This document shows positions 1 to 25,884 of a stretch of DNA of 64,000 nucleotides, in pieces. The translations under genes were made by a program, and so were the position numbers. The notes under the pieces were generated by a model, which saw only the letters and a program-made list of their open reading frames with translations, did no database searches and was not told where the DNA came from. Position 1 is the stretch's first letter; every line of letters begins with the position of its first letter. Where the stretch lies: NCBI GenBank assembly GCA_963847625.1, contig CAWKAR010000063.1:1-64000 (forward strand). The letters are read 5' to 3'. Source of the DNA: a candidate division FCPU426 bacterium (lineage in GTDB: Bacteria; Oederibacteriota; Muellerivitia; Muellerivitales; Muellerivitaceae).

Positions 1-295
1 CCAAGATCAAATGGTCTTTTAAATTGCGGTAAAGACGGTCGGTTTTTTCAACCAAAACCACTTTGCAGAAAGGATTTTTCTTGAGGTAATTCACCATTAA
101 CCCGAAATTTTCCCTTCCTGATGCTTTGGCGGTTTCAATGTCCTCAAACTCTTGAACCACTTCTAAACCGTTATTCAAGGCATATCCCCTTAAGAGCTGG
201 TATTGTGCAGGGATCGAATAGCCTTCCTTTTCTTGATCCTTGGAAGAAACACGGACGTATAGGACAGCTTCCTTCAATTCACTTGGTTGATTCAT
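1..295 (-). CDS. Serine recombinase (resolvase/large serine recombinase family), N-terminal catalytic domain; continues beyond the left window edge
   Basis: Not in the ORF track. Manual translation from ATG 295 gives MNQPSELKEAVLYVRVSSKDQEKEGYSIPAQYQLLRGYA...SGRENFGLMV...VLVEKTDRLYRN, with the YxRVS catalytic Ser motif and the DRLxR motif. Start overlaps the end of the RHH gene. Confidence 0.92.
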   Translation of the reverse strand, partial: MNQPSELKEAVLYVRVSSKDQEKEGYSIPAQYQLLRGYALNNGLEVVQEFEDIETAKASGRENFGLMVNYLKKNPFCKVVLVEKTDRLYRNLKDHLIL

Positions 296-494
296 TGGCT
301 TCCCCCTGCTTCAAAGGTTTTTGTTTTCCGCCCTTAACTTTTTTCCTCAAGGCATTTCGGATGGTTTTTTCCGTCCAGCTTTGAAGGGTGGTTCTTAATT
401 CCGCTACCCTGATTTTAAGACGGGTATGGGTGGAAGATGAAAGCCTAATGTGAATCAGCTTCCCTTTTCTTTTGGAAATTCTCAGTTCTTCCAT
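279..494 (-). CDS. Small basic ribbon-helix-helix-like DNA-binding protein
   Basis: 71 aa; pattern LIHIRLSSSTHTRLKIRVAE...LQSWTEKTIRNAL fits a beta strand plus two helices; overlaps the recombinase start. Confidence 0.6.
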   Translation of the reverse strand: MEELRISKRKGKLIHIRLSSSTHTRLKIRVAELRTTLQSWTEKTIRNALRKKVKGGKQKPLKQGEANESTK

Positions 495-558
495 TTTTCG
501 CCTTCATTCAGGCCGAAAAGAAAACAAAGTGGATATAAATGTAGCCACTTTTCCATTT

Positions 559-744
559 TCAGGGCCTATTTACAGGTGGTTCAGAACAATTTGGAGTATT
601 TTTTTCGGCCAGGGCATGAAGAAAGTTCACGGCGGTATCGGAAAATTGGCGTGCATCTTCACGGGTTAAAGGCCGTGAAAAATACGGTTGCCAAACCTTG
701 AGCGTGTATTCGATGAACTCTTCTTTTGAAAGATTCTTTTCCAT
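559..744 (-). CDS. Small hypothetical protein (VWQPYFSRPLTREDARQ motif) upstream of the RHH/recombinase genes
   Basis: ORF 559..756, likely ATG at 744 (MEKNLS); same strand as its neighbours. Confidence 0.6.
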   Translation of the reverse strand: MEKNLSKEEFIEYTLKVWQPYFSRPLTREDARQFSDTAVNFLHALAEKNTPNCSEPPVNRP

Positions 745-795
745 GATCCCGGCCAAGAAATAAAAATTACTCTTGGCGCAAGGATACGGCTAGGA

Positions 796-859
796 GGGGG
801 TAACTACCGGGGGAAGAACTGGGATTTTAAGGGGAATCTTCTGGGAATATTATTCCCAG
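796..859. repeat. Phased GGGAA/GGGAT array (10-11 bp period) ending in an inverted copy
   Basis: Cores at 811, 821, 832 and 843; CTGGGAAT-att-ATTCCCAG palindrome at 841-859. Confidence 0.65.
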
Positions 860-1434
860 TTAAGATTCATTCGAAATGTCCCTTTGCACTCACCTGAAAC
901 AATAAGAGTTTTAAAGGCTTCTTTTTTGTTTTTGAAAACATCTCGGAGCCTTTGGCTACAAATCTCTAATCCTTCAAGTAATGCGCTTTGGTGCATTACA
1001 GGGATTCGGCTTTCAAATGCCTTCCAAAGCCTTTCAACTACACGGGATTGATTTGTGGTTAATTCATATTTTTTATCCCCCCAATTGATAAATCTGAAAT
1101 CCTCGGAATGGTTGTATTGAGGGATTTGGGGTTTCACGGGTTCAGAAACAGTAGGTGTTTCGGAGGCGGTAATAACGCTTTTTTCCATTGGAGCAGGTTC
1201 AGCTTTGACAACGGAAGTATTGGTTACATCAATGATTTGTCCATTCAGTTCCGGTTTTGGGGTATCACTGGGCTTCTCGTTCCTCTTGTAAATTTCCACT
1301 CCATCCTTTTGGCCTAACCGATAGATAAGAAACATGATCCAAGCTAAAGCAAATCCAAGCACAATACCTATTCCCAGGGTCCACCAAGCGATTTTGGCGG
1401 GTTTTTTAACTTCAATTGCTTGATCGTTAGTCAT
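850..1434 (-). CDS. Membrane-anchored protein with Pro-rich linker and C-terminal winged-helix-like domain
   Basis: One N-terminal TM helix (IAWWTLGIGIVLGFALAWIMFLIY); RBS GAGG upstream; C-terminus DFRFINWGDKKYELTTNQSRVVERLW...RLRDVFK...GECKGTFRMNL resembles OmpR-type wHTH topology. Confidence 0.65.
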   Translation of the reverse strand: MTNDQAIEVKKPAKIAWWTLGIGIVLGFALAWIMFLIYRLGQKDGVEIYKRNEKPSDTPKPELNGQIIDVTNTSVVKAEPAPMEKSVITASETPTVSEPVKPQIPQYNHSEDFRFINWGDKKYELTTNQSRVVERLWKAFESRIPVMHQSALLEGLEICSQRLRDVFKNKKEAFKTLIVSGECKGTFRMNLNWE

Positions 1435-1510
1435 GGTTCAACCTCATTAAAAGTAGTTAAATCCTAAAGGAATACTACTGTATGCTTTTATAACAGTCAA
1501 GAAATAGCAA

Positions 1511-1542
1511 GTGGGAATGTTATTTTCCCACTAGATTCCCAC
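1511..1542. repeat. GTGGGAA / TTCCCAC array upstream of the wHTH-like gene
   Basis: GTGGGAA at 1511; TTCCCAC at 1525 and 1536 (11 bp apart). Confidence 0.65.
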
Positions 1543-1723
1543 TTGGAGCTAAAGAGGGGATTTGAAGCGGTGAAAATCATTCTGAAATCAACCTATCCTT
1601 CCTCTGTCTAATCTCAAATAGCAAAACCAGAAAACACCCCCTGAAAATAAGTTCTTAAATTCGTTTAAGACGGGTCTATCCAGTGAACTGTTTAGCCAGA
1701 TCAGATTCAGATTTCATTCTGTC

Positions 1724-1878
1724 ATTCTTAGAATCATTCTTAAGAATGATTCTTAAGAATGGAATCCGAGATTAAAACATTGAAAAATATGGGTTTTTGG
1801 GTTCGGATTCGAGTCTGGCATTCTTAAGAATGATTCTGAGAATGGGTTTGTGGATTCTAAGAATGGCATTCTTAGAAT
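1724..1878. repeat. Seven palindromic ATTCT-N1-2-AGAAT repeats in two clusters
   Basis: Copies at 1724, 1736, 1749 and at 1820, 1833, 1854, 1868. Confidence 0.9.
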
Positions 1879-1993
1879 GGGTTTAGGGTGGGTTATGGGT
1901 ATAGGTTAATAAACTCATAAATAATGACTTTTAAGCCATGCCTAATGGGTTTATGGGTAATGGGTTGTGGGTATGGGCTTGTGGGTTATGGGT
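1879..1993. repeat. GGG-tract (mostly TGGGT) repeat clusters
   Basis: 4 GGG tracts at 1879-1899 and 7 GGG tracts at 1947-1992, separated by an AT-rich spacer. Confidence 0.85.
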
Positions 1994-2127
1994 TCGTATG
2001 GCTTTTGATGATTTCCGACTTCTTGGAACTTCAGAAACTTCAGAATATGGGGGATTTCCAAGGTTATAAAATTTTCTAAATGTCTTTAAATAATTTAGAA
2101 GGGCTACATCCTAAAGCTTTATAAAAT

Positions 2128-2262
2128 TTAACGATATTTCGGGTTGAGGGAGCCTTTAGCCACGTCCAGCCTGTTAGCCATCAACGACTGTGTCAAAAGA
2201 AAACCAAAAACCATGAGTGTTAAAATTTTTATATTTGGTTTCCTAAAGACAAAGTCTTTCAT
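2128..2262 (-). pseudogene. Truncated third copy (signal-peptide region only) of the 2365/3332 paralog family
   Basis: IKILTLMVFGFLLTQSLMANRLDV matches the N-termini of both paralogs; DNA at about 2173-2242 is similar to about 3103-3172. Confidence 0.75.
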
Positions 2263-2364
2263 TTGTACCTTGGGTAATCTCTCAAGAGCCAAAGGGGTTT
2301 TGGATGAATATCCGTCTTCTTCGGGGGTACACACACGGTTGGATAGTTCTAATGTCAACTAAAA

Positions 2365-3174
2365 TCAATGGCCTTTAGGATGGACGTTATCATGATGATC
2401 TCCATCCTCATCGTCCTCATCTCCATGATGCTTTTTCTTTTTGGTGGATTGGATTCCAAATTCATCCTGGAACTCTTTCTGCAAATTCAAAACAATTTGA
2501 CCCGTTTGTATTCCAGCATTTCTCAATTGAATGGCATTCCAAAAAGTATTATTTTTCTTTGAAATCACATTCAGTATCTCCCGCACCGTATAATTATTTC
2601 CATTAAAAGTCATTGAAATCAAATCAAGGTCAAAATCAACCGGTCCACTTACCACAGCATACCCCAACTTAGGATAGATTTTTCCATTAACGTTTACTTG
2701 ATATTTTCCTGGATATTCCGCTCCGATTTCATTTCTTAACAATCTTACGACTTCTCTTCGGTTTTTATGATCTATATCAAAATTCTTTAATCGAAGATTA
2801 AAAAGATAAGTTTCGTCATTTTCCGCGGCTTTGGGAAAAATGTTGATTATTCCATCCCGGACAACGTAAACATATTTTGGGTCTTGAGCCAGGAATTGTT
2901 CCAACAAATCCCTTAACCTCGTTCCATCGGAAACATTAAAAGAAACAATCTGCTTGTCATTCGCGACTTCCTCAAAATTTACAACAACATGCTTTTTAAA
3001 TGCCAATTTTGAAATTATTCCAAGCACTGCCCCACTTGGCAAATTTTTATAAGTATCCTTTCCGAACTGGTCAATGTGCTTGATGACTACAACATTTAGG
3101 TCGTTAGCCATCAACGACTGTGCCAAAAGAAAACCCAAAACCATGAGCATAAAAATTTTTATTTTTTGTTTCAT
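2365..3174 (-). CDS. Secreted protein with two STN/secretin-N0-like repeats and a His/Asp-rich tail (paralog 2)
   Basis: Start reassigned to MKQKIKIF (ATG 3174) by alignment with the paralog; signal peptide; repeats FNVSDGTRLRDLLEQFL..DGIINIFP and FNGNNYTVREILNVIS. Confidence 0.8.
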   Translation of the reverse strand: MKQKIKIFMLMVLGFLLAQSLMANDLNVVVIKHIDQFGKDTYKNLPSGAVLGIISKLAFKKHVVVNFEEVANDKQIVSFNVSDGTRLRDLLEQFLAQDPKYVYVVRDGIINIFPKAAENDETYLFNLRLKNFDIDHKNRREVVRLLRNEIGAEYPGKYQVNVNGKIYPKLGYAVVSGPVDFDLDLISMTFNGNNYTVREILNVISKKNNTFWNAIQLRNAGIQTGQIVLNLQKEFQDEFGIQSTKKKKHHGDEDDEDGDHHDNVHPKGH

Positions 3175-3194
3175 AAAATATTCTACCTTTCTTC

Positions 3195-3281
3195 TTATTG
3201 AAGACCAATCGGAAATGACGTTTGTATCCCGCATGGACTAAGAACTCAAGTATTAACCTGCCAAAGAGCAGTATGATCTAC
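3195..3281 (-). pseudogene. Relic alternative 3' end of the lipoprotein gene 4157..5230
   Basis: Translates VDHTALWQVNT*VLSPCGIQTSFPIGLQ*, colinear with the lipoprotein end VDVAGCLGNNTVVLSPGSVKTSYPITLQ*. Confidence 0.75.
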
Positions 3282-3331
3282 TCTCAAAGATGATTAACTT
3301 TAGTTGGAAGGATTTTTTGTTAACTTAGGAA

Positions 3332-4135
3332 TTAATTGTGGTGATGACCATCATCGTTTCCCTGATCATCGACATGATCGCCGTGTTGTGGCCGTTTTCC
3401 AGTTGACTGGATACCATACTGGTTTTCTTTCTCAAAAATCACATTCATTTGTCCAGTTTGTATTCCTGCGTTTCGCTGCTGAATGGCGTTCCAAAAAGTA
3501 TTATTTTTCCTTGATATGACGTTCAATATCTCTCGCACCGTGAAATCACTACCGTTAAAAGTCATTGGAATCAAATCGAGATCAAAATCAACGGACCCGT
3601 TAATTACCAGGTAGCCCAACATAGGGCGAACCTTGCCATTAATCATTACTTGATATTTTCCTGGATATTCCGCCTTAATTTCGTTAATCAACAGTGTCAT
3701 AATTTCTCGACGATTTTTATGGTCGACATCGAAATATTTCAACCGGAGATTAAAAAGATAGGTTTCATCCCCTTCAGTGGCTTTTGGAAAAACATTAATT
3801 ATTCCGTCCCTGATAACGTAAATGTAATTAGGATCTTGGGCGAGGAATTTTTCCAACAAGTCTCTTAATCTCGTTCCATCCGATACATTAAATGAAATTA
3901 TTTGTTTATCATTTGGAGTTTCTTCAAAATTGAGAATAACATCTTTTTGAAATGCCAACCGAGAAATAATTCCAAGTGCCTCAAAGCTTTGCAGATTTTT
4001 ATAAGAATTCTTCCCAGACTGTCCAAATTGATCATTATTCTTAATAACCACCACATTCAACTCATTAGCCAGTAGCGAGTGTATCAAGAGAAAACCAAAA
4101 ACGGCAAGTGTAAGGATTTTTATTTTATGTTTCAT
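3332..4135 (-). CDS. Secreted protein with two STN/secretin-N0-like repeats and a His/Asp-rich tail (paralog 1)
   Basis: Signal peptide; clearly homologous over its full length to 2365..3174; RBS AAGGAAGG. Confidence 0.85.
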   Translation of the reverse strand: MKHKIKILTLAVFGFLLIHSLLANELNVVVIKNNDQFGQSGKNSYKNLQSFEALGIISRLAFQKDVILNFEETPNDKQIISFNVSDGTRLRDLLEKFLAQDPNYIYVIRDGIINVFPKATEGDETYLFNLRLKYFDVDHKNRREIMTLLINEIKAEYPGKYQVMINGKVRPMLGYLVINGSVDFDLDLIPMTFNGSDFTVREILNVISRKNNTFWNAIQQRNAGIQTGQMNVIFEKENQYGIQSTGKRPQHGDHVDDQGNDDGHHHN

Positions 4136-4156
4136 GGTATAACCTTCCTTTCCCTT

Positions 4157-5230
4157 TTATTGAAGGGTAATGGGATAAGATGTTTTAACGCTCCCTGGGC
4201 TAAGAACTACAGTATTGTTTCCCAAACACCCAGCGACATCTACAACCTGATGCCACACCGCCTGGACATTTGGGTTGTCGCATAGTTGCGCATCATCTAT
4301 CTCCACTAGGTATTTATCAGGAAAAGAACCATCAGGAGCTGTCGCAGTGAATCCGACCCCAATTTTTGTGTCATAATTGACCCCATCCGTGATAAGTTCC
4401 GGAGATGTTTGTGAAGCATCTATTGTAGCCGATTCAGTGACAAGAAGTCCTGGCATAGCTTTTCCGAATTGGTCTTGGACCTGAAGATAACCCCAGTCAC
4501 TGGAATTTAAAGTCCCCCATACAAGACCTTCACAATCTCCCGTATATGGATTAAAAAATTGTTCGGACGTTATAACTGGTGGACTTTCCACCACTATCGA
4601 TGTTGGCTGTTGCGCGGTCAATTGCTGGGTACAGACCGTTTGGCGGGAGCCCAAGGTATAAGTCAGTTGAAGCGTGATGTCATTCATGGCCTTGCTCGGG
4701 CCTATCGCTTGTACCACAACGATATTATTCGTGACGGCGCCGTCGAGTTGAGCTTCGTCCGCTCCGGAAATGATGGACCATTGATAGGAACCAAAGGATT
4801 CACTGACAGTTGAAAAAAATAAATTAAATTCTCCACCCCGGCTGCAAAAATACTTTATGGTTGCCGGCCCTGTTATATTGCATGTAATTGGTGTTCCTGA
4901 AGGAGTTGGAGTTACTGATGGAGTTGGTGAAATTGTGGGTGTCGGCGAGATGGTGGACGTGAAAGTTGCTATTGGAACCGGGGTCGGGGTCTCAGAGGTG
5001 CATGGAACGGGTGTGGGCGTGCAAATTTCAGGAGTGCACCCATAACTGCAACCACAAGGGAAGGGGCAAGTGGGATCTGGTGGTGGGTCATGTTTTTTGC
5101 AAGTTTCCACAACAGAGGACGGGCTAAGAGGCGTAACCTTTTGGTTGCATCCAATTAGTCCAGTAATACCGCCAAAGAAAGCTAAACCCAATAAAAGCAG
5201 ACAACAATTTTGCCAATTCGAAAGTTTCAT
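4157..5230 (-). CDS. Putative lipoprotein: Cys-rich N-terminus, Pro/Thr linker, Ig-like domain and unknown C-terminal domain
   Basis: Likely start MKLSNW (5230); lipobox LIGC; TPTP repeats; C-terminal YLQVQDQFG..E..TAPDGSFPD segment. Confidence 0.8.
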   Translation of the reverse strand: MKLSNWQNCCLLLLGLAFFGGITGLIGCNQKVTPLSPSSVVETCKKHDPPPDPTCPFPCGCSYGCTPEICTPTPVPCTSETPTPVPIATFTSTISPTPTISPTPSVTPTPSGTPITCNITGPATIKYFCSRGGEFNLFFSTVSESFGSYQWSIISGADEAQLDGAVTNNIVVVQAIGPSKAMNDITLQLTYTLGSRQTVCTQQLTAQQPTSIVVESPPVITSEQFFNPYTGDCEGLVWGTLNSSDWGYLQVQDQFGKAMPGLLVTESATIDASQTSPELITDGVNYDTKIGVGFTATAPDGSFPDKYLVEIDDAQLCDNPNVQAVWHQVVDVAGCLGNNTVVLSPGSVKTSYPITLQ

Positions 5231-5346: not shown

Positions 5347-6831
5347 TCATTTGATTTTAACGTTATTTTTTTGTTGTTTTATTATCCCATTTTTAAAAGA
5401 AAACAAATCGTAATGTCCCCATAAGCTTCTCTTGGTGTAATGCTTCTCAATCTCATCCAATAGCCATTGCGGCGGTGGGATGAGCTGGTCAAAATGTGAG
5501 ATCACTACATAATCCGGGAGCCGGGCCATAAACAAAGCTTCTAAACTCGCCCATTCTTGGGGCATCTTTGCCAAGTGGTTCACCAACGGTGTCCGCAAAA
5601 CAGCCATTTTTAAACCGGAATAAACATAGATTTGCGGTTCGGTGGACCACACGAAAAGCCGGTCACCTGGATGGGAAATGCTTTTGATATACAACCCAAT
5701 GTCCTTGGACTCTTTTGATCTTTCCAAGACATATTCCGAGTTTTCAATCCCGCTTTCTCCCCTTTGCCAAACCTGAGACCAAGGCGTTCCAAGGCAAAGC
5801 AACATCAGGCAGGTCAGGCTCCAAAATAAAAATTTCTTTTCCCAAATTTTGGTTAAACATTCCCCCAAACCCAAAGCCAACGGCAGAACCGCCATGAAAT
5901 AGTAATAAGTGTGGAAAAAGCCGCTGATAAGACAACAAAGAACAGAGGTCAGGAACCAAAGCAAAGTAAAAAAGTAGGCATTAAAGTTCCCCTTTATCCT
6001 ACCTATCCCCTTCCTCACAAGAAACCAGATGGTGATAAATGCGGGCAACCCATAAACCGAAAACATCTTTAAATGCCATTGCCAAATTTGGTGCCGGTAA
6101 TCCGGATGGGATAAAAAAATTTGCCAGCCCCATTCCGCGTAAATATGATTGAAACCCCAAAGCGCGTCACCTAACAACGGAAAACGCCCATCATTTAAAA
6201 AGGGAAAAACAACAACCAATGCGACCATATCCAAGCCCAAAACGAAGAATAGGGCTGCTTTGAGTTTCTCCTTGCGTACCAGGAGAAAATAAAGTGGCGC
6301 AAAAAACAAGCTGGTTGGTTTCGTGAAAAAGCTGATAGCCCACAAAATTCCCGATAATCCATTGGACCAATTTTTTCCAACAAGCACCAAGTAAAATGAA
6401 GCTAGTAAAAAAGGCTGCATCAAGACCTCGGCCTGGGGTGTCCAAGCCTGGAAAAAAGGCGGCAACAAAAGAAAGACGTAAACCCAACAAGTCAGCCAGG
6501 CGGTTCGTTTGCCATAGCCAAGCTTTTGAGCCAGGAGAAAAAGGAGAAAAACGTCAACCCAATGAAAAAGGACTGCATAAAGCCTTAAGGGAAGTTCGCC
6601 TGTTCCAAACAAGTCTTGGAGCCAAACGAAGTGCAGGAAAAGCAATGGGGGTTTATGGTCCCAAACGTCCAGGTACAGTTTGGCCCCGTTCCTTATTTCC
6701 TGGGCCACGCAGGTGAACATGCCTTCATTCGCGGAAAAGGGGACCTTAAAATAGGGTAATTCAATGAAAAATAGTGTAAGAGCTAATAAAATCCAGGTTG
6801 AAATATTTTTTATTTTGGAATTCAAAAGCAC
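5347..6831 (-). CDS. GT-C fold membrane glycosyltransferase (ArnT/PMT_2-like)
   Basis: Many TM helices; LYLDVWDHKPPL motif; FFTKP. Confidence 0.85.
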   Translation of the reverse strand: MLLNSKIKNISTWILLALTLFFIELPYFKVPFSANEGMFTCVAQEIRNGAKLYLDVWDHKPPLLFLHFVWLQDLFGTGELPLRLYAVLFHWVDVFLLFLLAQKLGYGKRTAWLTCWVYVFLLLPPFFQAWTPQAEVLMQPFLLASFYLVLVGKNWSNGLSGILWAISFFTKPTSLFFAPLYFLLVRKEKLKAALFFVLGLDMVALVVVFPFLNDGRFPLLGDALWGFNHIYAEWGWQIFLSHPDYRHQIWQWHLKMFSVYGLPAFITIWFLVRKGIGRIKGNFNAYFFTLLWFLTSVLCCLISGFFHTYYYFMAVLPLALGLGECLTKIWEKKFLFWSLTCLMLLCLGTPWSQVWQRGESGIENSEYVLERSKESKDIGLYIKSISHPGDRLFVWSTEPQIYVYSGLKMAVLRTPLVNHLAKMPQEWASLEALFMARLPDYVVISHFDQLIPPPQWLLDEIEKHYTKRSLWGHYDLFSFKNGIIKQQKNNVKIK

Positions 6832-7316: not shown

Positions 7317-7453
7317 TTTGGGCTAGCAGTTCTAAACTCGTCCAATGCGGGGACCGATTAAATTTTGACTCGAGCGATGGGAAAGTCCGAAAACGTGATT
7401 TTTAAGTTATTCGAAGGGTACATAAATGAAAAAATATTTATTTCTAATAATAA

Positions 7454-8746
7454 GGGCACCTCTAAAAATTCATTGTAAAGAGGCAGTGGATTCGGTACAA
7501 GGAAGAATCGGCGCGTGAAAGCGTTGAAAATTCCTTTTGTGAGGTGTCACCCATGGGCCAAACCGGTTTTTTTGATCTACAAGATCGATTGAAATCACTG
7601 GATGAGATGGGAGACCCGCTGGAAGCCCTGAACCGGGTGATCCCTTGGGAGGATTTCCGAAGCGTGTTGCGGAAAGGTTTGCGCAACAAGGATAGAAAGA
7701 GCGAAGCGGGACGCCCGCCTTACGACGAGGTTTTGATGTTCAAGGTGCTGGTTCTACAGGCATTGTACAACCTAGCGGACGACCGGACGCAGTTCCACAT
7801 CCAGGACCGGCTGAGTTTCATGAGGTTCTTGGGGTTGGGGATGGATGCCCAAGTGCCAGACGCCAAGACGATCTGGCTGTACCGGGATATGCTGGCGCAG
7901 GGAGGGTGGATCGACCCATTATTCGATAAGCTCAACAGGCATCTGGACAAGGCTGGGTTGAAGGCACAGGAAGGTCAGATCATTGATGCCTCCATCGTGG
8001 AAGTACCCCGGCAAAGGAACAGTAAGGAGGAGAACGACCAAATCAAGAAAGACGAAATCCCGGAAGGGTGGAATAAAGAACCGGAAAAACTCAGGCAAAA
8101 AGATCTGGATGCCCGGTGGATGAAGAAAAATGGGGTGAACCACTATGGGTACAAGAACCATATCAATGTGGACAAAAAATACAAACTGATCCGGAAGTTC
8201 GAGATGACGGCGGCATCGGTGCACGACAGCGAGATTTTTGAGGTGATTTTGGACGGGAAGAACCGGAAGAAGATTTGGGCGGATAGTGCGTACCGATCAG
8301 GTAAAAAGAGTAAGGCTTTGAAGCGTAAAGGCTATGACAACCGGACTCATTATAAATCCAAACGGAATCATCCGCTAACGGCGTTCCAGGAGAAATTGAA
8401 CAAGGCCCGGTCTAAGGTTCGGGTTCGGGTGGAGCATGTATTTGGGCACATGGAAGTGGCGATGGGAGGCAATTGGTTGCGGGTGGTGGGAAAGGTGAGA
8501 GCCCGGATGAAGATTGGAATGAGGAACATCGCTTACAATATGCAACGGTTTGCTTACCTGATGGGACGAATGCGCCCAAAGACGGTTGTTGGATAGATTT
8601 TGGCTGTTTGGAAGGTTCTGAAGGCTACTGAAAGGTTGAAAGAGAGCGAAGCAGGGAGTAAAAGCCCTCCGCATCAGTGGGTTGAATGCTACGAAACGGC
8701 TTTCATCATCTGATAGCACTTCAAACAGGAATTTTTAGAGGTTCCC
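7454..8746 (+). mobile_element. Complete IS5-family insertion sequence
   Basis: IRL GGGCACCTCTAAAAATTC 7454-7471; IRR GAATTTTTAGAGGTTCCC 8729-8746 (17/18 match); 4-bp target duplication ATAA at 7450-7453 and 8747-8750. Confidence 0.95.
7553..8596 (+). CDS. IS5-family DDE transposase
   Basis: GRPPYD, DRLSFMRFLGL, VPDAKTIW, IIDASIV, YGYKNH, WADSAY and RVRVEHVFG motifs. Confidence 0.97.
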   Translation: MGQTGFFDLQDRLKSLDEMGDPLEALNRVIPWEDFRSVLRKGLRNKDRKSEAGRPPYDEVLMFKVLVLQALYNLADDRTQFHIQDRLSFMRFLGLGMDAQVPDAKTIWLYRDMLAQGGWIDPLFDKLNRHLDKAGLKAQEGQIIDASIVEVPRQRNSKEENDQIKKDEIPEGWNKEPEKLRQKDLDARWMKKNGVNHYGYKNHINVDKKYKLIRKFEMTAASVHDSEIFEVILDGKNRKKIWADSAYRSGKKSKALKRKGYDNRTHYKSKRNHPLTAFQEKLNKARSKVRVRVEHVFGHMEVAMGGNWLRVVGKVRARMKIGMRNIAYNMQRFAYLMGRMRPKTVVG

Positions 8747-9337
8747 ATAATTATCTTTTTTAGTGGAGTCGTTAATTCTGCTGATGTGGAAGAAAGAATC
8801 TATAACGCGCATTTGATAAATCACAATAAGACAACAAGGATTATTTTATCCGTAACGTTAGATCATAAAGAGCAGTGCCTAGAAAATTTGAAAATATTTA
8901 ATGGAAATTCTGAAATATTCCGTCTTTTAGAAAATAAAACTGGATGGGCGCAACCGGTTGTTGAATGTTGGCTGACTCAATTATTTTCAAACGACTTAGA
9001 TCAATTGATTTTAGAAACAGATTATATGAGCGATGGGAACAAGTTGTATATTTTGGGATGGAATGGCAAGAAAGTAGTTAATGCTTTCGGAAAAGAGCTA
9101 GTTCAGCTTTTCGATGTTAAAGATATAAACAATGACGGGAACAAAGAATTAATTATATATTCCCGTTACAAAGGTATTCATATTTATGAATTTGATCCGA
9201 AAATATTTAAATATGTAAAAAAAGATGAAAAATACAAGAAAGAATTAAAAATTCTGAACTCTCCAGCAAAAATAAATCGATTTTTTAAAATTAAAAACGA
9301 ACGTATGTTTTATTGATTTTATTGCCATTGTGCAAAT

Positions 9338-25346: not shown

Positions 25347-25439
25347 GAGAGGCAATCCCTTCTAAACGAAAAGGGGCCGCCCTGGTTGCGCAGAAAAGTT
25401 GGGGTAAAATAAGGAATGTTTTCCTGCATCAGTAGCGCC

Positions 25440-25575
25440 CTTCGGAGCCTAAAAGGTTAGCTGACGGGCTCGGCGCGAAAGGTCGCCGCCCCTTCCCCTT
25501 TTTTTATAATCCAAAAAGGAAGGGGTAAGCCCCGGTGATTGGTTCCCCTGTCCGCATTTACGCGGTTCGGCCTTA
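25440..25575 (-). ncRNA. Cyclic di-AMP (ydaO/yuaA) riboswitch
   Basis: Minus strand reads GCCGAACC..GGGGAACC..GGGGCTTA..AGGG..CCGAGCCCGTCAGCTAACC..TAGGC, matching the hallmark segments of the ydaO class; upstream of a K+ transporter. Confidence 0.88.
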
Positions 25576-25884
25576 AATAAACAATGCGCTATTGTAGGAG
25601 AACAAAACTGAAAAGCAAGACCTTGATCCGGCCAAGTATCATACCGCATTACGTAGCGGAATTTCCTTTTGCCAAGCCCTTTTGGAATGGATAATCCGGC
25701 AGGAATTGAATTGAAAATCGTTTTTTTTTTCCTTAAACTTGATTTACACCGTCGAAAGCATCAGTGGCGGTGGGCCGTCTAGGCCGGGCATCTTCGATCG
25801 GCATCCCTGTAACAGGAACGCGGCGGAGGGATAGTCTCGGATGCGGACGGAAAGCAAAGATGCGGAAAAGGAAGGTTTTGAAAG

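Follow-up and report, generated by a model that had tools for sequence, protein, structure and literature searches.

The locus described here raises the question of what a lipoprotein gene does when it is followed by repeated copies of a small partner gene and by a remnant of its own 3′ end. It lies in a 64,000-nucleotide stretch (contig CAWKAR010000063.1 of assembly GCA_963847625.1, positions 1 to 64,000; hereafter the window) from a candidate division FCPU426 bacterium. An initial annotation, made from the sequence alone, recognized five elements, namely the lipoprotein gene, partner 1, a relic of the lipoprotein 3′ end, partner 2 and a stub of partner 3, and read them as a polymorphic effector/partner cassette. 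All five lie on the minus strand at the positions first assigned, and their order and the two tip peptides were found as written. On balance, the locus is probably a polymorphic toxin-immunity cassette, with an envelope-acting toxin that works by binding and an N0-like partner as its immunity protein.

The lipoprotein and its C-terminal tip

The lipoprotein gene (4157-5230) encodes 357 amino acids. Its signal peptide (5147..5230) ends in a lipobox-like LIGC at residues 25-28 (Cys28), as read from the sequence against the lipobox consensus. There follow a Cys-rich region and Pro/Thr stalk (4883..5146), which form a conserved scaffold common to four further genes of the family, a first immunoglobulin (Ig)-like spacer domain (residues 117-209, 4604..4882), and a C-terminal tip domain of 148 residues (residues 210-357, 4157..4603). 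The spacer precedes the same tip also in genome G050 of the same family and at loci L010, L087 and L108; its Atlas matches to Big_2, invasin or PKD domains were under 0.9 and are leads only, and one out-of-frame row of the Ig alignment was set aside.

The 148-residue tip belongs to an unnamed family whose members are also found at the C-terminal end of Pyrinomonadales Rhs proteins and, in the Elusimicrobia genome G100, of secreted carriers. An iterative hidden Markov model (HMM) search with three seeds recovered five full tips in G100, at E-values of 1e-42 to 1e-58, and one 62-residue fragment. Homology between the lipoprotein tips and the Rhs tips rests on profile-profile comparison: the lipoprotein-type profile matched that of 17 Rhs C-termini with a probability of 93%, E 2.5e-7 and a score of 48.6, and 100 column shuffles gave scores of 15.3 or less. 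An HMM from four Rhs-tip seeds did not grow, and the lipoprotein-type HMM touched Rhs tips at E 0.009 only. The family thus occurs on at least four unrelated scaffolds, these being the window lipoprotein, in which Pfam and NCBIfam gave no match to an Rhs core or YD repeats, the Rhs proteins, a Cys-rich Elusimicrobia carrier, and IPT/Ig carriers. The tip profile matched 1 of 201 genomes of the phylum of G100 and 6 of 301 genomes of the phylum of G099, with 21 matches in 151 Pyrinomonadales genomes and 14 in G100. A word-based search with the C-terminal half of the lipoprotein confirmed 0 of 499 candidates.

The initial annotation recognized no known toxin domain in the lipoprotein, and none emerged from Pfam, NCBIfam, PDB or structure searches. 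The tip matched no Pfam or NCBIfam family, and no PDB entry by sequence below E 0.05. Weak matches to Invasin_D3 were present in 3 of 34 tip members and to Big_1 in 2 of 34, and a longer protein with MG4 and Big_1 domains was matched at E 1e-4. An AlphaFold2 model of the tip from a 44-row alignment was a beta-sandwich (pLDDT 84, pTM 0.77); a single-sequence model of the Ig and tip region was discarded at pLDDT 38. The best structural matches of the tip model were complement C5 MG4 (Z 7.4, root-mean-square deviation 3.2, 99 residues aligned), TEP1, C4 and invasin/intimin (for invasin, Z 7.0, deviation 2.8, 89 aligned), all at Z 7.0-7.4. As these values lie below 8, they speak for a common Ig-like arrangement and not for a function. 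Foldseek searches of PDB and viral structures gave no match at E 0.001. PilP and GspC were absent among the 50 structural matches listed, which excludes nothing. The tip is predicted to be an Ig-like sandwich of the macroglobulin/invasin type, and not a known toxin enzyme.

Three polar residues of the tip are nearly invariant. E57, D96 and Q119 of the domain (E266, D305 and Q328 of the protein) are conserved in 42, 43 and 43 of 44 rows, and 41 rows have all three, at a mean column identity of 17%. Their positions alternate in phase with the hydrophobic core columns, and the three side chains likely face the tip core.

Exchange of C-termini was also observed within the lipoprotein family. The N-terminal scaffold is present in five genes from 3 of the 31 family genomes, with four kinds of C-terminus: the window type (twice), a helical Cys-rich tip (contig C17 of the source genome, G000), a beta-rich tip, and a peptidase-like tip whose gene is interrupted. 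Each scaffold gene is followed by a gene of its own, the product of which starts with a signal-peptide-like stretch. The gene with the helical Cys-rich tip (C17:7231-8755; L164, L209) has an unrelated partner of 230 amino acids and gave no library match. The peptidase-like tip in genome G067 (L213:1411-3231) is cut off from its scaffold by a TAA codon, and the family of its partner has an orphan copy, at 32% identity, near the lipoprotein locus of G050 (L005:6345-7259). Reading this tip as a C39-like peptidase, from a sequence motif, was rejected, as Pfam, NCBIfam and PDB gave no support. The four scaffold genes outside the window adjoin a similar gene for a PMT_2-type membrane glycosyltransferase (L005:7557-9742, L164, L211, L213); upstream of the window lipoprotein there is instead an unrelated, unassigned polytopic membrane gene (5347-6831). 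That the Pro/Thr stalk is glycosylated is a guess.

The partner and its association with tips

Partner 1 (3332..4135), directly behind the lipoprotein gene, encodes 267 amino acids with a signal peptide, two STN/N0-like domains and a His/Asp-rich tail; the resident tip is likely its cognate. A profile search gave 78 family representatives at E up to 0.001. Pfam STN was detected in 22 of 68 aligned members (E up to 0.05, best 2.3e-5) and FecR_C in 7 of 68, and both halves of the family profile matched the N0 domain of PilQ (E 0.0019). The signal peptide was read by eye, and the window copies have no membrane anchor. With 267-269 amino acids in the window and mostly 200-280 in the family, the partner has no C-terminal pore or barrel. 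Judged at the family level, it is a tandem N0-like protein without a pore, and it is likely secreted. Close partners were found in 2 of 99 genomes of the source phylum. A scan of genomes for the partner motif gave 67 loci, 63 of them with a partner, mostly titled Pyrinomonadaceae and some Elusimicrobia; a metagenome scan with four close partners gave 470 pattern matches, of which 0 were confirmed.

Immediately upstream of the 63 partners there was an Rhs gene at 21 loci and, at 8, a tip with no recognizable Rhs core; 2 partners adjoin a contig edge, and the other 32 follow something else. Many of these 63 rows also went into building the tip profile, and three Rhs tips counted under the last class belong to the tip alignment. 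Conversely, an N0 partner lies directly behind 15 of the 21 Pyrinomonadales tip matches, and the 151 genomes hold only 69 partner matches altogether; in G100 a partner follows 7 of 14 tips, seeds included. With the seeds set aside, this survey of homolog neighbourhoods, suggested earlier as a check, showed a partner behind 4 of 8 evaluable tips in Pyrinomonadales and 0 of 7 in G100. The C-terminal domain recurs on Rhs and other scaffolds with the partner behind it, which supports the initial reading of a polymorphic effector/partner cassette with STN/N0-like partners. Other tips of the family are followed by unrelated small secreted proteins, and tip fragments with a partner recur at L008, L009, L070, L085 and L086. 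Paired tip and partner trees had 8 of 30 splits in common (3 or fewer in permutations), and Mantel correlations were 0.40 for 33 pairs and 0.52 for 27 pairs (0 of 5000 permutations), with kinship not removed. A predicted complex of the tip with partner 1, from paired 33-row alignments, scored 0.04; its controls were not folded, and it was used neither way. Further unnamed beta-rich tips, only possibly related to the main tip family, precede N0 partners at L014, L021, L034, L035, L056, L058 and L065, and at L076, L078 and L088.

In genomes G144 and G154, the tip-partner pair is one module within Rhs orphan arrays (L199-L201). Sibling modules in these arrays exceed the curated cut-offs for the TseH-like, Tlde1 and BPSL0067 families, which attack the cell wall. 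Two full-length Rhs carriers start with signal-peptide-like stretches. The Pyrinomonadales genome G154 (L200, L201, L203) alone contains 91 Rhs-core matches in long orphan arrays, and most of the tips and partners scanned there have no Pfam family. In G100 (L076-L089, L147-L160, L167, L168) there are 13 partner genes and 14 tip matches, as well as a family of membrane-protein partners. The G100 carriers have one N-terminus in common and bear at their other end a tip of the window type, a different beta-rich tip or a tip with an HExxH motif; a functional reading of that motif was rejected, since the libraries gave no support. These carriers are an undescribed polymorphic system in themselves.

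The relic, the orphan partner and the surroundings of the locus

Partner 2 (2365..3174) is an intact gene for 269 amino acids, 72% identical to partner 1 over 248 residues. Both partners end in His/Asp-rich tails (2365-2430 and 3332-3400), and the tail of the G050 partner is Asn/Gln-rich instead. Between the partners lies the 87-bp relic (3195..3281), separated from the start of partner 2 by a purine-rich spacer. The relic is a real remnant of a lipoprotein 3′ end, as it aligns locally to the resident gene with a score of 63, which 0 of 2000 shuffles equalled (best 34). However, the 28 terminal codons ascribed to it initially are not intact. Only the last 16 codons and the stop, out of a 148-residue domain, are in a clean frame (3195-3245), with a TGA codon immediately 5′ (3246-3248) and 1-nt indels beyond.

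Partner 3 is reduced to its signal-peptide region (about 2160..2244), in agreement with its first description as truncated. It is 89% identical to partner 2 across 75 nt, has lost its start codon (AGG replaces the ATG of partner 2), and is cut at 2159/2160, the terminus of a serine-recombinase element. No relic was found upstream of it (alignment score 15, reached by 1936 of 2000 shuffles). A relic with a partner is thus seen once only, and a duplicated unit of 3′ tip plus partner, as first supposed, is not borne out. The comparison with orphan alternative C-termini of Rhs and contact-dependent inhibition (CDI) loci fared no better. With neither a junction motif nor a whole domain, the relic would be unable to reload the lipoprotein with a new tip, and it is best described, from its sequence, as a decayed fragment and no usable alternative tip. 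What is orphaned at this locus is a partner, not a C-terminus.

How partner 2 arose can be judged from the divergence of the copies. If the last 0.95 kb had simply been duplicated in tandem, the relic would have been carried along passively and partner 2 would be redundant. In keeping with this, the two partners resemble each other more than either resembles the G050 orthologue (54-57% identity), whose genome has the lipoprotein with a single partner, and the relic is non-coding and takes in the spacer before the start codon. Yet the partners differ by a replacement divergence (dN) of 0.15 and a silent divergence (dS) of about 2.3, near saturation of silent sites (dN/dS about 0.06), while the relic tip is still 70% identical to the resident tip, with proportions of silent and replacement difference of 0.58 and 0.22 over a small sample of 16 codons. 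Had a non-coding fragment been carried along at the split of the partners, much heavier decay would be expected. The excess of silent over replacement change, despite the age of the split, indicates that the relic diverged as coding sequence; in addition, a Gly and a Gln missing from the resident gene occur in both the relic and the G050 tip. Simple duplication, which the initial annotation had named as the result that would undo its interpretation, is therefore very improbable. Partner 2 is best read as the orphan partner from a second, long-separated cassette. This whole cassette would have evolved apart for long and lost its lipoprotein gene late, either in place or after capture.

The surroundings of the locus include mobile elements. 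The recombinase element end (1..2159, no strand assigned) is repeated in the genome and lies outside the module; it is 89% identical to an end on contig C57. The source genome has at least five ends of this family (window 1-2159, C24:140054-142078, C26:55479-55977, C57:6347-7074, C39:129355-132612), which have in common 0.6 kb of non-coding sequence made up of ATTCTTAAGAAT palindromes and ATGGGT repeats, with no match in Rfam. Low-GC cargo near these elements includes a KAP NTPase, AbiV and an HNH/RNase H/TPR protein. Elsewhere in the window are an insertion sequence with a DDE transposase and terminal inverted repeats (7451-8749) and a c-di-AMP riboswitch (25431-25582, minus strand) 5′ of a membrane transporter-like gene. 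Promoter and terminator scans gave results at chance level only. Three DNA sequencing runs cover scattered pieces of the window, and none spans the relic.

Mode of action and relation to known systems

Four observations point to a toxin and its immunity protein: the tip-partner pair occupies a toxin slot, the scaffolds are swapped, partners are kept after tips are lost, and one tip family has several partner families. The partner has a signal peptide, which indicates the envelope as the site of action, and the Ig-like fold suggests binding. We propose that an exchangeable Ig-like tip, displayed on a lipid-anchored stalk, acts on the cell envelope of neighbours by binding and not by known enzyme chemistry, and that the tandem-N0 protein encoded behind the lipoprotein neutralizes it. 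Partner 2 may be kept against related tips of other strains. The likeliest targets of the tip would be N0/STN domains of envelope machines, such as secretins and TonB-dependent transducers. Because N0 is known as a docking site for all-beta domains, a free decoy copy of the target domain is the simplest specific model of the partner, though we regard this step as doubtful. The assignment to a toxin class is firmer. A binding toxin is somewhat probable by itself, and a toxin with a chemical warhead would add a small further share. The fullest version, in which Ig-like envelope toxins of several phyla block the N0 domains of secretins or TonB transducers, perhaps by a covalent bond from an activated Gln, and a free tandem-N0 decoy confers immunity by target mimicry, is unlikely as a whole.

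Several observations weigh against a toxin-immunity cassette. No known toxin fold was recognized in the tip; its best structural matches are binding or spacer domains, none matching at Z 8. The window's own partner copies give no STN match, so that the STN/N0 assignment holds by family only. None of the seven non-seed tips of G100 has an N0 partner, and several have a membrane protein; half of the evaluable non-seed tips in Pyrinomonadales (4 of 8) are without a partner. Among the 21 Rhs genes before a partner, 12 fall below the tip-profile threshold, and upstream of 32 of the 63 partners there is no Rhs gene and no tip. The agreement of tip and partner trees is partly kinship. A partner found behind several tip types could also be a general chaperone or receptor.

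Such a role would fit a non-toxic recognition or adhesion pair. The tip would then be a surface ligand that differs between alleles, the N0 protein would receive it, cap it or assist its folding, and the polymorphism would serve kin recognition. The adhesin/macroglobulin-type fold, the Invasin_D3 and Big_1 matches among the tips, and the presence of the partner family behind several beta-rich tip types are consistent with such a pair. We nevertheless consider it rather unlikely, because the tip-partner pair fills the same slot of the Rhs arrays as the enzyme toxin modules, a protein that has an ordinary signal peptide but lacks a membrane anchor would make a poor receptor, one tip family is served by unrelated partner proteins, and the loss of tips with retention of partners (the window, L085, L086 and 32 stand-alone partners) is the pattern of immunity genes. 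Genomic position thus favours toxin and immunity over ligand and receptor. Alternatively, the tip may be a chemical warhead, in which two core-facing acids activate the invariant Gln and the target supplies a nucleophile, leading to covalent attachment or deamidation in the envelope, with the partner giving steric immunity. The co-occurrence of E, D and Q in phase with the core agrees with this, and in ester-crosslink domains a Gln acts together with two buried acids (bioRxiv 10.1101/2025.03.26.645365). The Thr nucleophile and His base of ester-crosslinked Ig domains are, however, not conserved in the tip: no His column reaches 15 of 44 rows and no Thr column exceeds 21 of 44, with a Thr near the first strand in 29 of 44. 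Burial was read from sequence alternation and not from coordinates, and the three residues may bind a metal or a sugar or form a structural network. We judge the warhead distinctly unlikely.

The proposed binding toxin with its immunity protein resembles polymorphic toxin systems, as described by Zhang et al. 2012 (PMC3482391), in its conserved anchoring N-terminus, its variable C-terminal domain on several scaffolds, its downstream partner gene and its stand-alone cassettes; Sec-type export is among the routes given there. It differs in having an Ig-like tip without an enzyme fold or a Pfam/NCBIfam family, and an N0-like partner. Neither 'secretin' nor 'transthyretin' occurs in the accessible main text of that paper, whose supplements could list either family. 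The orphan CdiA-CT/CdiI and Rhs-CT/RhsI modules described by Poole et al. 2011 (PMC3150448) likewise comprise downstream arrays of untranslated toxin-gene fragments and intact partners, but keep a whole toxin domain after a junction motif, unlike the window relic; relatives of the window cassette do sit in true Rhs orphan arrays. Korotkov et al. 2011 (PMC3169554) describe N0 domains that bind all-beta partner domains through beta-strands. In the GspC-HR/GspD-N0 and PilP/PilQ-N0 pairs treated there, an anchored all-beta domain meets N0, and PilP is a lipoprotein; in contrast, the window partner is a tandem of two N0-like domains that lacks a secretin pore, the neighbourhood is free of secretion genes, and the top matches of the tip are macroglobulin and invasin domains. 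The tip has the predicted fold of Big_1/invasin and MG4 domains, but is set apart by insertions, by its terminal position and by the three polar residues, nearly invariant, that likely lie in its core. In myxobacteria, SitA lipoprotein toxins also combine a lipoprotein scaffold, polymorphic C-termini and a downstream immunity gene, but have nuclease tips and cytoplasmic immunity, whereas the window partner has a signal peptide. A literature search, which covered few subscription papers, found none combining Rhs, C-terminal, Ig-like, immunity and N0 domain, and the STN domain, Pyrinomonadaceae and Blastocatellia were unmentioned among the matches listed.

Judged by sequence, the tip family, the partner family and the lipoprotein scaffold would be new to polymorphic toxin systems. 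The two unnamed families, which occur in at least three phyla of little-studied bacteria, would thereby be added to these systems. Most known polymorphic toxin tips are enzymes or pore formers; the combination of an Ig-like tip and an N0-like protein suggests a different way of acting. Should the partner be a mimic of the target, it would also identify that target. A test set is at hand in the window, comprising one tip, its likely cognate partner and an orphan partner that is 72% identical to the latter.

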